DNA from: an uncultured archaeon
GTDB taxonomy: Archaea > Aenigmatarchaeota > Aenigmatarchaeia > QMZP01
Assembly: GCA_964399875.1 (NCBI GenBank)
Contig: CAYNRQ010000001.1
Coordinates: 8,800 to 40,799, forward strand
Direction of reading: 5' to 3'
Length of the DNA: 32,000 nucleotides
Shown: piece by piece, positions 9,605 through 12,008 of the stretch
Layout of the letters: the number at the start of each line of letters is the position of its first letter
Numbering within the stretch: position 1 is the stretch's first letter
The notes under the pieces: model-generated
Database searches by the model: none
The model's input: only the letters and a program-made list of their open reading frames with translations
What the model was told of the DNA's origin: nothing
Translations under genes and position numbers: made by a program

Positions 9605-11887
9605 TCATCCAGTCATTCTAGGAACAGGCCGTTCAAGCGCTTTCTTTTCTGAGTATTCAAGCCTGTCCTTGAATTCTTCCTGTTTTCCGTCATTCCATAT
9701 TTGTACAGGTCTGAAATACCCGACAACTCTTGAATAGACTTCGCATCGCTTCCCGCAAACATTTTTTTTACCGCCGCCATTGGGTTGTGGGCATGTGAAA
9801 TGTTCTCCCTTTACATAGCCATGTTCAGGACATCTTGAAAATGTTGGGGTTATGGAAAAATATGGAAGTTTTGTATTGTATGCAATCTTTTTGACCAGTT
9901 GCTTGCACGCTTCACCGGATGACATCCTCTCGCCCAGAAATGTATGGAATATTGTCCCACCTGTATACAACGGCTGAATATCATTCTGGTGTTCCAGTGC
10001 CTCAATAACATCATCTGTCTTATCAACAGGAAGATGTGTTGAATTGGTCAAGTAAGGCTCCTTTTTCCCAGCAGTTACTATATCAGGATACATTTTTTTA
10101 TCCTCTCTTGCAAACCTGTAAGATGTGCCCTCTGCAGGCGTCGCTTCCAGATTGTACAGATTTCCTGTTTCTTTCTGGAATTCCAGACATCTTTCTCTCA
10201 TAAACTTCAAAGTTTCAATAGCCAGCATCTTACCTTCTGGTGTTGATATGTCCTTGCCAAGGAGATTAAGGCAGGCTTCATTCATTCCGCAGAGCCCAAT
10301 TGTTGAAAAATGGTTTTTGAATGTTCCCAGATACCTCTTTGTGAAGGGCATCAAGCCGTTTTTCATATTCTTTTCAATAACCTCTCTCTTTATCTCCAGT
10401 GCATTCTTGCAAAGTGTCATATAATAGCCGAGCTTGTTGAAATAAAGTTTTCTCGCCTCCTCCTCAGACCCGGATTCCTTTCTCGCCTCATATCCAAGCC
10501 TGTTCACATTTACAGTCATCACTCCAATTGATCCAGTTGAATCTCCCGGACCCCACATGCCGCCAGGTCTTTTCAGCAGTTCAGACTGGTTGATATTTAG
10601 TCTGCAACACATCGCCCTTATGGATTTGGGATCAAGACCAGAACCCACGTAATTTTGAAAATATGGAAGGCCGTATTTCGCTGTCACTTCAAACAAAAGC
10701 TTAGCGTTCTCAGAATCCCAGTCAAAGCTTTTCGTTATGTTATATGTAGGAATTGGAAATGTAAACACGCCACCCGTTGCATCACCTTCAAGCATAACCT
10801 CCAGAAATGCTTTATTTATCATATCCATCTCATTCTGGCAATCACCGTATGTAAATTCCTGTGGTTTACCTCCAACTATAGCCTTCTCCTTTTTCATATC
10901 ATCTGGTACAGCCCAGTCAAAAGTAAGATTGGAAAATGGAAACTGACTGCCCCACCTTGAAGGAATATTTAAGGAGAAAACAAGCTGTTGCATATTCTGT
11001 TTAACAGCCTTATAATCTAGATTATCTGCCTTAACAAAAGGAGCAAGCAGCGTATCGATGGAATTAAATGCCTGTGCCCCGGCAAACTCCATCTGCAGGC
11101 ATCCTATATAGTTTACCATCTGGTGCACCACTGTAGACAAATGCTTTGCAGGTTTGCATTCTACTTTATTTGGAACCCCCCCGAAACCCCAGAGCAGAAG
11201 ATTCTTCAAGGAATGACCACAACAGTAACCAATGACGCCATGACTTAGATCATGTATGTGAATATACCCTTTTTTATGCGCATTGCTTATCTCTGCAGAA
11301 TAAAGCTCATTCAAATTATAGTTTGACATAACCTTTCCAGCAGTGTGCAATAAAAGACCAGAAAAAGAAAACGCCTCATTTGCATTCTCCTTCACTCTCC
11401 AATCAGTCTGATTAAGATATTCGCCTATAGTATTATTTACATCTAACAGTAATGTCTTCGTTTCCCTTATTTTTTCATGTTGTTTTCTGTAAAGTATATA
11501 GGCCTTTGCTGTTTTATAATGGCCGCTTTCAACCAGAACCTTTTCCACGATGTCCTGTATCTGCTCCACTGTTGGAACAGTGACACCGCCAAACTTTTCT
11601 TCAAGAACAGAAACAACCTTGTCAGAAAGAACCTTTGCCAGCTCCTTATCTGTTCCGCCAACAGCCTGTGCTGCCGCCCATATAGCGCTGGTTATTTTAT
11701 CCTGATTAAAATCAACTACCCTTCCGTTTCTTTTTTTGACTTTTGTTATAAGGCCCGTAACCCTTTCATATGTAGTAAATCTTTTTCCGCACTTTGTGCA
11801 TTCCCTTCTTCGTCTATTAACCTTATCATCAGAAACCCTTTTATCCACAACCCTTGTCTCAGAATGCTTGCAGAAAGGACATTTCAT
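9605..11887 (-). CDS. nrdD: Anaerobic (class III) ribonucleoside-triphosphate reductase with an N-terminal NrdR-like zinc ribbon and ATP-cone
   Basis: The C-terminus has the glycyl-radical motif [10 protein letters not shown] and a Cys4 site (CPEHG..CPQP..CGKRC). The core has [10 protein letters not shown] and AMCCRL. The N-terminus is [35 protein letters not shown] followed by an ATP-cone ([28 protein letters not shown]). Confidence 0.95.
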   Translation of the reverse strand: [760 protein letters not shown]

Positions 11888-11960
11888 ATATATGGCCCCA
11901 TGAACTTAAAACCCGGCATGCCTGTCTGTTATACCAGACAAATTCACCACTCTTAGATAA

Positions 11961-11976
11961 ATACTATATATTGTTA
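11961..11976. promoter_or_regulatory. NrdR-box-like palindrome A (ATACTATATATTGTTA)
   Basis: It matches 13 of 16 positions of the NrdR-box consensus acaCwAtATaTwGtgt, which I quote from memory. It lies 74-89 bp upstream of the nrdD ATG, just downstream of a TATA-like tctataaat (minus strand, about 11976-11984). Confidence 0.45.
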
Positions 11977-11992
11977 TTTATAGATATTTCTA

Positions 11993-12008
11993 CCACTATA
12001 TCTTGTGG
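11993..12008. promoter_or_regulatory. NrdR-box-like palindrome B (CCACTATATCTTGTGG)
   Basis: It matches 13 of 16 positions of the same consensus and has CCAC..GTGG arms. Its centre is exactly 32 bp from the centre of box A. Confidence 0.45.

Follow-up and report, generated by a model that had tools for sequence, protein, structure and literature searches.

The closest described systems to the locus reported here are the repressor NrdR and the anaerobic (class III) ribonucleotide reductases, NrdD. ATP-cones of the NrdR type bind ATP and dATP together. On DNA, NrdR is a tetramer of cone pairs and ribbon pairs whose DNA sites lie 80 Å apart, a distance that fits two boxes separated by three helical turns (PMC9110341), and the canonical spacer between bacterial NrdR boxes is 15–16 bp (PMC12051234). 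For the P. copri NrdD, dATP shifts the balance to tetramers in which the cones form ordered pairs (PMC11226230). The cones of the S. thermophilus NrdD are dimerized by dATP and separated by ATP; dATP-induced tetramers form with the P. copri enzyme and not with that of S. thermophilus (PMC12662201). In both enzymes, dATP induces cone pairing together with inhibition.

We analysed a 32,000-nucleotide stretch of archaeal DNA (the window), in which a single minus-strand ORF of 760 amino acids (9605..11887) encodes an NrdR-type zinc ribbon, one ATP-cone and a class III reductase (Pfam PF22811, PF03477 and PF13597). The ORF has the position, length and N-terminal sequence given in an earlier, sequence-only reading of this DNA. 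That reading had also claimed an uninterrupted frame from the ribbon into a complete class III core and this was borne out, with the ORF intact and the catalytic core (residues 167–745; 9653..11389, minus strand) covering the full Pfam NRDD model (PF13597, 620 bits). The protein scored 1022 bits against the NCBIfam NrdD model NF006126 (cutoff 548), the match starting at residue 48, and 532 bits against the NrdD equivalog TIGR02487 (cutoff 326). Its translation has the glycyl-radical motif RVVGY near the C-terminus, plus a C-terminal cysteine cluster. When the structure of residues 1–200 was predicted, the best PDB matches were NrdR structures, with 136–157 aligned columns spanning ribbon and cone. 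A second public record contains the same 4.2 kb with zero mismatches. Ribbon, cone and class III NrdD are fused in one polypeptide.

Downstream on the same strand lies an nrdG-like radical-SAM activase gene (7394..8122; Radical_SAM and Fer4_12 domains), and all related loci likewise have such a gene after the fused nrdD. Between nrdD and nrdG there is a gene for a PQQ-repeat beta-propeller (8088..9539, minus strand; Pfam), an arrangement also seen in the related locus L161. The PQQ-repeat gene is probably in the same transcription unit as the fused nrdD.

The N-terminal ribbon (residues 1–41; 11765..11887, minus strand) has the pattern CPFC...RRRR.C..C..RFTT with two CxxC motifs. It was assigned to the NrdR type rather than to generic zinc ribbons, as the sequence-only reading had proposed: the PF22811 (Zn_ribbon_NrdR) score was 60.4 bits (cutoff 27.2) against 12–16 bits for generic models. 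From residue 1 it aligns with the solved NrdR structures 7p37 and 9fzf (phmmer alignment to 7p37). In S. coelicolor NrdR the DNA-contact residues are R12, D15, R17, RRRR and R37 (PMC9110341), and R12, D15, R17, RRRR and R36 of the window protein all align identically with them. These positions are invariant in the 21 fused homologues of our alignment A2, except that residue 12 is either R or K. Since the contact and specificity residues are invariant in the fused homologues examined, the ribbon does not appear to be a relic. What the window protein does not have is the 'complete NrdR-like module' that had been claimed for it: the score against TIGR00244 was 71–74 bits, below the cutoff of 124.65, and only model positions 1–86 of 147 were covered.

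The single ATP-cone (residues 49–138; 11474..11743, minus strand; PF03477, 84.9 bits) is of the NrdD (activity-site) type. It is 59–60% identical, with no gaps, to the second cone (residues 163–263) of P0159, a longer relative with two cones, and has weak similarity to the NrdR-type first cone of the two-cone relatives. Window residues 1–49 align with P0159 residues 1–50, and window residues 50–150 align gaplessly with P0159 residues 163–263. This points to an in-register deletion: on the sequence comparison, the ATP-cone in the window is the reductase's own and that of NrdR has been lost. The NrdR-like ribbon-to-cone spacing noted earlier held up, residues 18–75 aligning with E. coli NrdR without a gap. 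Because an NrdD-type cone has been retained, the nucleotide logic may differ from that of NrdR.

P0159 (locus L170) is a full NrdR::NrdD fusion of 855 amino acids with two cones; it scored 172 bits over the full TIGR00244 model, and the long-form relatives as a group scored 172–188 bits, above the cutoff that the window protein does not reach. The third state is found in locus L179, which has an NrdD with 78% identity, the same MetRS-DUF5654 synteny and a separate nrdR of 151 amino acids located 55 bp upstream of nrdD. Since nrdR holds the same syntenic position in this closest unfused relative, the window ribbon is taken to descend from the adjacent nrdR. In a neighbour-joining tree of NrdD cores, which is too crude for counting fusion events, the short, long and separate forms were interspersed.

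Among the 120 best clusters at 90% identity, 105 have the ribbon. More than 100 fused clusters were found in NCBI, JGI, ENA and Logan assemblies, and those with names are from DPANN archaea. The family is compact, with only about 10 representatives matching from residue 1 in a search at 50% identity. A genome scan with the alignment A1, back-translated from NrdD motifs, gave almost only unfused nrdD among the matches listed, and these matches were the source of our controls and of the nrdR-nrdD operons described below. A metagenome scan with the ribbon alignment A2 gave mostly bacterial nrdR, the only fused loci being L081, L082 and L087; the other fused loci were retrieved by exact look-ups. 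The description of the fusion as uncharacterized stands insofar as we found no paper describing it, but the architecture has been catalogued, both through Pfam domain calls and in an IMG product name, which for the long form reads 'anaerobic ribonucleoside-triphosphate reductase/transcriptional regulator NrdR'.

Two NrdR boxes lie ahead of the fused gene, on its upstream side, at the positions reported in the sequence-only reading. The distal box, which is box 1 in the direction of transcription, occupies 11993..12008 (plus strand CCACTATATCTTGTGG, minus strand CCACAAGATATAGTGG) and the proximal box, box 2, occupies 11961..11976 (plus ATACTATATATTGTTA, minus TAACAATATATAGTAT). Again as reported, each matches the consensus at 13 of 16 positions, the two agree with each other at 11 of 16, and 32 bp separate their centres. 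The 16 bp spacer (11977..11992) is conserved in length (15–16 bp) and not in sequence. The scoring matrix was derived from 26 boxes at other loci, with no box taken from the window or from its closest relative. Against this matrix the distal box scored 20.0 bits, the best in the 32 kb and a value reached by 0.3% of dinucleotide shuffles, while the proximal box scored 9.3 bits, the third best in the window, and is not significant alone. As a pair they scored 29.3 bits, which none of 1000 shuffled windows reached; the best pair per shuffled window averaged 0.2 ± 3.8 bits with a maximum of 19.6 (n = 1000). The pair is therefore well above shuffled background.

Two further sites were considered and set aside. 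A conserved candidate third box, AAAATATATTCTTCAG (12058–12073), agrees with the consensus at 13 of 16 positions in L081; it is without the key C4 and G13, ranks below the top 15 matrix sites of the window and is out of helical phase with the two boxes. The second-best site in the window (23945–23960, 12.35 bits), considered as a sign of a wider regulon, is within a gene for a T2SSE ATPase and probably arose by chance.

Conservation upstream of orthologues was found as well: in each of the 12 distinct fused loci examined, the best pair in the whole locus lay 60–201 bp upstream of the fused gene. The spacer was 15–16 bp in all 12, with a diverging sequence. The distal box is conserved in L161, L162 and L081, and the proximal box is conserved as TAACAAGATATAGTAT in L161. 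Box pairs were also present at nrdR-nrdD operons from Woesearchaeota, Bathyarchaeia, Thermoplasmatota and one Methanobacteriota genome, where the archaeal pairs scored 25–41 bits and lay 60–90 bp upstream. No box pair was present upstream of nrdD in eight archaeal loci with neither a ribbon nor an adjacent nrdR; the best pairs anywhere in these loci scored 12 bits or less and were kilobases from the gene start. Box pairs thus co-occur with the ribbon. The Hadarchaeota locus L007, which a tblastn look had suggested as fused, has a different zinc ribbon without RRRR, and no boxes. In L166 and L176, a class II reductase gene beside the fused gene has no boxes, so any regulon would be confined to the protein's own operon. 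The sequence-only reading knew of no NrdR-type regulation in archaea. This has to be revised, since NrdR was already reported in 'some archaea' (PMC9110341) and the box-paired nrdR-nrdD operons point to such regulation in several archaeal groups.

A predicted BRE/TATA element for the nrdD promoter, AGAAAAG-TTTATATA, lies at 12040..12054 (minus strand), and 15 of the 17 loci aligned have a TATA-like element in a comparable place. Given the usual archaeal distance between TATA and start, transcription is predicted to begin near 12017, which would leave about 9 nt to box 1. As the conserved BRE/TATA is ∼30 bp upstream of the distal box, both boxes would lie at or after the predicted start, a placement that fits repression rather than activation. 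The sequence-only reading had arranged the promoter differently, with the boxes bracketing a TATA element and the proximal box between TATA and start. The sequence tctataaat is indeed present between the boxes, but both boxes are downstream of the conserved BRE/TATA. As the main promoter, TCTATAAA in the spacer was rejected because it occurs at differing positions in the window, L162 and L081 and is absent from most other loci; it may be a second promoter. The leader between box 2 and the ATG is 73 nt (11888..11960, minus strand), compared with 26–153 nt among fused orthologues, and gave no match to any Rfam family of riboswitches or other RNAs.

The proposal that this reductase carries an NrdR-type ribbon and has NrdR operators in its own promoter gains support from the conservation of the contact residues, the conservation of the boxes and their co-occurrence with the ribbon. 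Repression of its own gene by the fused reductase is strongly suggested by these sequence comparisons. We infer that the fused protein is itself the binder of the boxes. The reading that we favour, and hold to be somewhat better than an even bet, is that an anaerobic reductase has incorporated the repressor of the operon to which it belongs, by way of fusion, cone loss and dATP-dependent self-repression. In the ancestor, nrdR and nrdD would have formed an operon that NrdR repressed through a pair of boxes close to the transcription start. Fusion of these genes would have produced the long form with two ATP-cones, and an in-register deletion would later have removed the cone of NrdR. In the resulting short form, the ribbon leads straight into the activity-site cone, at a spacing like that of NrdR.

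In the proposed mechanism, high dATP would cause the cones of the NrdD dimer to pair, as happens in the NrdDs of P. copri and S. thermophilus, and catalysis would be switched off. Cone pairing would also position the ribbons, such that ribbon pairs from two dimers could bind the two boxes (+10 to +57) and RNA polymerase recruitment or escape would be blocked. When ATP replaced dATP, the cones would part and the protein would leave the DNA, switching on both enzyme and gene. We infer the direction of the nucleotide dependence and the geometry of the oligomer. The full version of this scheme, in which one ATP-cone does two jobs and dATP pairing both inactivates the enzyme and assembles the ribbons into a box-binding NrdR-like tetramer, is put forward tentatively, its chances being a little short of even; the ∼85-kDa catalytic body attached to each ribbon may prevent such a tetramer.

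The same data bear on other explanations. The boxes could be real NrdR operators bound by a stand-alone NrdR encoded elsewhere in the genome, the fused ribbon being a leftover or having another job, such as a structural zinc site or hetero-oligomerization with free NrdR. A non-adjacent nrdR can serve boxes, as a Nanoarchaeia locus (L008) shows: it has a 38.6-bit pair upstream of an unfused nrdD and no nrdR within 6 kb, and the 32–45 kb visible is a small part of the source genome. We nonetheless consider this explanation unlikely, given that the nrdR of the closest unfused relative sits exactly at the syntenic position of the fused ribbon, that the ribbon has kept its contact and specificity residues across fused homologues as a relic would not, and that the flanks of the fused loci L081, L082 and L087 contain no second NrdR-type ribbon.

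Rather less likely again is that the ribbon binds the boxes in some way other than as a dATP-dependent repressor. It might bind constitutively, which would amount to simple negative autoregulation by protein level, or activate transcription, or relay feedback from DNA to enzyme activity. The protein indeed has no NrdR-specific cone, the type that reads ATP and dATP jointly, and an NrdD cone may not pass the same switch to the ribbon. On the other hand, the ribbon–cone spacing is exact and the 15–16 bp box spacer is retained in the short forms, which argues that geometry set by the cones still matters; activation in particular sits poorly with boxes at or after the predicted start. An artefact, with boxes that are chance AT-rich palindromes or a fusion created by an assembly or frameshift error, is very improbable. 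The low G+C content (∼40%) and the non-significance of the proximal box by itself would allow for it, but the pair score was matched in 0 of 1000 shuffles, the pair recurs in all 12 fused loci, and the fusion is found in >100 clusters from four independent data sources.

If one ATP-cone does serve both jobs, end-product feedback on both catalysis and transcription would be exerted by one domain in one polypeptide, and reductase-type and NrdR-type cones would be functionally interchangeable. NrdR and the reductase ATP-cones are active structural topics, and how cones convert ATP and dATP into an output is a live question. An NrdR ribbon grafted onto the enzyme's cone, with all the intermediate stages extant in related genomes, offers a direct test of cone interchangeability, and the natural fusion provides a stable version of a repressor notorious for its instability when purified by itself. 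In small DPANN genomes it would be a compact, end-product-responsive, self-repressing enzyme. NrdR-box regulation at BRE/TATA promoters would, if true, be widespread in archaea (DPANN, Bathyarchaeia and Thermoplasmatota). The loci compared here suggest that, in several archaeal phyla, promoters of archaeal type are under a repressor system known mainly from bacteria, which the NrdR literature has as rare or absent there.

The fusion in the window is an uncharacterized variant of the NrdR system. Like NrdR, it has a ribbon with two CxxC motifs, RRRR and the specificity residues D15 and R17, followed directly by an ATP-cone, and tandem 16-bp palindromic boxes with a 15–16 bp spacer over the promoter or start site of a reductase operon. 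As with nrdRJ of S. coelicolor, the regulator's own gene is inside the box-bearing reductase operon. Unlike NrdR, which is a free protein of ∼150 amino acids, the ribbon in the window forms the N-terminal end of the target enzyme itself; the NrdR-type cone has given way to the enzyme's activity-site cone, and the TIGR00244 score is below cutoff. The host also differs: NrdR is mainly bacterial and acts at −35/−10 promoters, whereas the window is archaeal with a predicted BRE/TATA promoter. The long-form NrdR::NrdD of DPANN archaea (P0159) shares the lineage, synteny and upstream box pair, but consists of a complete NrdR plus the NrdD cone, and so has two cones where the short form of the window has one.

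As an enzyme, the window protein belongs to the same family as the NrdDs of P. copri (PDB 8P23/8P28) and S. thermophilus (PDB 9D3X), with an N-terminal activity-site cone and an nrdG activase in the operon. Unlike these two enzymes, it has an extra DNA-binding ribbon of 45 residues before the cone; to our knowledge, there is no characterized NrdD with such a ribbon. In the trigger enzymes PutA, BirA and NadR, which act as repressors of the genes that encode them, a metabolic enzyme carries a DNA-binding domain, the operators are in its own promoter and binding is controlled by a metabolite of the pathway. The window protein would resemble them in uniting an enzyme and a predicted sequence-specific DNA-binding domain in one polypeptide, with a putative operator in its own promoter. 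It differs in that the DNA-binding fold is unrelated and comes from the pathway's dedicated repressor, and in that its sensor domain would serve both allosteric and transcriptional control. Other reductase fusions are known, namely eukaryotic NrdD-NrdG and glutaredoxin-NrdB (PMC3019208). These are precedents for neighbouring reductase-operon genes fusing into one frame, but they join catalytic partners, whereas the fusion in the window joins a transcription factor to its target.

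The fused nrdD gene is a minus-strand ORF (9605..11887, 760 aa) preceded by an intergenic region of 193 bp (11888–12080). Its product carries three Pfam domains in a single unbroken frame: Zn_ribbon_NrdR at residues 1–41 (60.4 bits, cutoff 27.2), ATP-cone at residues 49–138 and NRDD at residues 167–745. An NrdR-type ribbon had been proposed from the sequence-only reading and this was upheld, since generic zinc-ribbon models in Pfam reached just 12–16 bits; the N-terminus is therefore specifically NrdR-type. The class III reductase model NF006126 (NCBIfam) scored 1022 bits (cutoff 548), and the glycyl-radical motif RVVGY and a C-terminal cysteine cluster were seen in the translation. 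The NrdR equivalog model TIGR00244 gave 71–74 bits, under its cutoff of 124.65, and matched over model positions 1–86 of 147. By these profiles, the protein belongs to NrdD but not fully to NrdR, because it falls below the TIGR00244 cutoff and is without an NrdR-type cone. A plus-strand 159-aa ORF (11477–11956) overlaps the N-terminal part of nrdD in antisense and is unsupported as a gene; it starts at the same coordinate as the sequence-only finding.

In a full-length search, 105 of the best 120 clusters (90% identity) showed the ribbon. These were drawn from NCBI, JGI, ENA and Logan assemblies, some with the IMG product name 'anaerobic ribonucleoside-triphosphate reductase/transcriptional regulator NrdR'. 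Around 10 representatives remained at 50% identity, so the fused family is compact. The short form, to which the window protein belongs, has ∼750 aa and one cone (64 clusters). The long form has 855–880 aa and two cones (∼25 clusters), a complete NrdR preceding an NrdD that brings its own cone; here TIGR00244 scored 172–188 bits over model positions 1–147 of 147. Several fused proteins (P0126, P0127, P0130, P0146, P0175, P0216, P0220 and others) reach 1050–1195 aa because inteins (PF14890, PF14528) sit in the NrdD core.

In an ungapped alignment, the window cone shared 59–60% identity with the long forms' NrdD cone (cone 2), and it had nearly no similarity to their cone 1. Window residues 1–49 aligned with residues 1–50 of P0159, the long form of locus L170, and window residues 50–150 with its residues 163–263. 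On this alignment, the short form is accounted for by an in-frame, in-register deletion that begins in the first strand of cone 1 and ends in that of cone 2; a V-K-K/R-D/N-G motif is common to both strands. Against Escherichia coli NrdR, the window protein aligned without a gap over residues 18–75, spanning the ribbon-to-cone junction, and by this comparison its ribbon-to-cone spacing is still NrdR-like. Of the 'complete NrdR-like module' claimed earlier, the ribbon and the spacing thus stand, but the cone is that of the enzyme. Judged by these identities, the module is a chimera of an NrdR ribbon and the reductase's activity-site cone.

Of 80 genome loci retrieved, 27 had a stand-alone nrdR directly upstream of nrdD; the hosts include Woesearchaeota, Pacearchaeota, many Bathyarchaeia, Thermoplasmatota, one Methanobacteriota genome and a few bacteria. 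At one such locus, L179, a separate 151-aa nrdR lies 55 bp upstream of an nrdD whose product is 78% identical to the window NrdD, and the MetRS–DUF5654 synteny is shared. The long fusion of L170 is likewise downstream of a MetRS gene, and both the window and its relative L161 have the short fusion. Separate, long and short states were intermixed in a crude neighbour-joining tree of NrdD cores, which hints at repeated transitions among the three. A Hadarchaeota NrdD (L007:6001–6100, CAYLJV010000005.1) has a different N-terminal zinc ribbon, MRCPKCGHIWNPRVEQPKRCPRCG, which lacks an RRRR motif; an acidic linker and a cone come after it. A matrix scan of that locus gave no NrdR boxes, and it appears to be an independent ribbon–NrdD fusion.

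The gene neighbourhood of the window (MetRS, DUF5654, PMT-type glycosyltransferases, a TrmB regulator and an ATP-dependent DNA ligase) points to an archaeal host, and the named close homologues are from Aenigmarchaeota, Woesearchaeota and Nanoarchaeota (DPANN archaea). The radical-SAM activase gene nrdG lies downstream of the fused nrdD on the same strand, with a PQQ-repeat beta-propeller gene in between (8088–9539, minus strand; L161 counterpart 9891–11249). L161 has two more function-unassigned genes in this interval; in other relatives nrdG or a glutaredoxin-like gene directly follows nrdD. An Fe-S assembly cluster (4627–6650, minus strand: cysteine desulfurase, NifU, small HTH protein, DUF1858, ferredoxin) is also found near the nrdD–nrdG genes of relatives L162, L163 and L170; this proximity may have to do with the activase's need for Fe-S.

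The two boxes reported earlier were recovered upstream of the fused gene, each matching 13 of 16 positions of the NrdR-box consensus, with centres 32 bp apart. Box 1 (distal, 12008–11993) reads CCACAAGATATAGTGG on the minus strand and box 2 (proximal, 11976–11961) reads TAACAATATATAGTAT; the spacer is 16 bp and the leader from box 2 to the ATG is 73 nt. To avoid circular reasoning, a symmetric scoring matrix was built from 26 boxes of loci other than the window and its closest relative. Box 1 scored 20.0 bits, the top site of the 32 kb, and was equalled in 0.3% of shuffled windows; box 2 scored 9.3 bits, ranking third, and by itself was not significant. The pair scored 29.3 bits, against a shuffled best pair of 0.2 ± 3.8 (maximum 19.6), and none of 1000 shuffled windows equalled it. 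The pair therefore exceeds background. The second-best site of the window, GCACAATATACTGCAG (12.35 bits, pair score 8.8, 23945–23992), falls inside the coding sequence of a gene (22023–24275, minus strand) for a T2SSE-family ATPase and is probably a chance match.

At every one of the 12 distinct fused loci (the window, L161, L162, L163, L166, L170, L176, L177, L178, L081, L082 and L087), the top pair of the whole 6–32 kb locus sits 60–201 bp upstream of the fused gene. The pair is thus kept upstream of fused orthologues, always with a spacer of 15–16 bp whose sequence varies from locus to locus. In bacterial NrdR operators this spacer is canonical, with tightest binding at about 14–18 bp (PMC12051234). 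At the adjacent-nrdR loci, mostly archaeal, the top pair was 60–170 bp upstream of nrdR in 24 of 27 cases. Since position was not used in the pair search, the concentration of pairs upstream of the fused genes is independent evidence. A matrix scan of eight archaeal nrdD loci without a ribbon or adjacent nrdR (L005, L006, L007, L029, L032, L054, L071 and L079) gave no upstream pair; their top scores were at most 12 bits, compared with 25–41 bits in loci with nrdR. The exception was a Nanoarchaeia locus (L008, JANQNC010000001.1), where a 38.6-bit pair (5877–5925) directly follows the TATA box of an unfused nrdD. No nrdR was found within 6 kb of that nrdD, and the regulator must be encoded elsewhere in the genome. 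From scores and conservation, the window operator is very likely a functional NrdR-type site controlling the fused gene.

When the promoters of 17 loci were aligned on box 1, a BRE/TATA-like element appeared upstream of the boxes, beginning ∼39 bp before box 1 in the window's clade and 22–27 bp before it in separate DPANN operons. In the window the predicted element is AGAAAAG-TTTATATA (12054–12040). The archaeal TATA centre is usually ∼26 bp from the start site. At that distance, the predicted window start site is ∼9 nt before box 1, near 12017, and that of the separate DPANN operons is inside box 1. Both boxes would then lie at or just after the start, roughly +10 to +57, a predicted position to block polymerase recruitment or escape. 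NrdR kinks DNA by ∼90° at each box, and such a kink would add to the block. The spacer TATA TCTATAAA, previously read as the TATA box, recurs in three close relatives at shifting positions and is missing elsewhere; it was rejected as the main promoter, and a second promoter there is possible. A conserved AT-rich element, AAAATATATTCTTCAG (12058–12073, minus strand), lies ∼20 nt upstream of the predicted BRE/TATA and is also present in L161, L162 and L081; L003 and L166 have similar sequences. It resembles the NrdR-box centre but is missing the key positions C4 and G13, and its distance to box 1 varies (67 versus 52 bp). Possible roles are a binding site for some other regulator and a second promoter.

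The main rival explanation is that the boxes are bound by a free NrdR encoded elsewhere in the genome, of which only 32–45 kb is visible. However, the fused ribbon sits, by synteny, where close relatives have their adjacent nrdR, and the residues with which it would read DNA are clearly constrained. In the Streptomyces coelicolor NrdR–DNA structure (PMC9110341), R12, R26–29 and R37 hold the phosphate backbone, and recognition of the box's conserved G·C pairs falls to D15 and R17. All these residues align identically in the window protein and are invariant among the fused homologues examined, save residue 12 (R or K). The best PDB matches of the predicted structure of residues 1–200 (pLDDT 72) were NrdR structures (136–157 aligned columns), with isolated reductase cones ranking below. 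The window ribbon thus looks able to bind DNA, and we consider it likely that the fused protein itself binds the boxes.

As had been proposed, the fused reductase probably represses its own gene. In cone-bearing reductases, dATP pairs the two cones of the dimer and inhibits the enzyme. NrdR binds DNA as a tetramer assembled from paired cones and paired ribbons, and its two DNA-binding sites are 80 Å apart (PMC9110341); dATP also favours tetramers of Prevotella copri NrdD (PMC11226230), and ATP drives the cones of Streptococcus thermophilus NrdD about 40 Å apart (PMC12662201). By analogy with this tetramer and cone pairing, ribbon binding would depend on dATP: catalytically silent, dATP-loaded NrdD dimers would present their ribbons, ribbon pairs across two dimers would bind boxes 1 and 2, and ATP would reverse the binding. 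Short forms have preserved the NrdR-like ribbon-to-cone spacing as well as the 15–16 bp box spacer, consistent with a retained geometry. We regard the complete model, in which dATP drives the switch via the NrdD cone, as about evenly poised.

Published accounts describe NrdR as a free protein of 140–220 residues and as rare or absent in archaea (PMC9110341, PMC12176259, bioRxiv 10.1101/2025.03.28.645925). Full-text searches of the literature found no description of an NrdR–NrdD fusion and no paper on NrdR together with DPANN. The architecture is already visible in Pfam domain calls and IMG product names, so the family is catalogued though uncharacterised. An nrdR directly upstream of nrdD, with box pairs 60–100 bp upstream, occurs at loci L002–L004, L013–L030 and L037–L077, which include archaeal MAGs of Bathyarchaeia (where the second box is weak), Thermoplasmatota, Woesearchaeota and Methanobacteriota. 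With so many archaeal nrdR–nrdD loci carrying box pairs, NrdR regulation in archaea seems much commoner than the literature states. In the fused loci L166 and L176, a class II-type reductase without an ATP-cone and a CobA-like corrinoid adenosyltransferase are encoded just upstream of the fused nrdD (L166:1373–3645, L176:559–2753), with no NrdR box in front of the class II-type genes. The putative fused regulator therefore would not control all reductases, in contrast to bacterial NrdR, with which it would share its action at NrdR boxes. In concept, the fused reductase would be akin to the self-repressing enzymes PutA and BirA.
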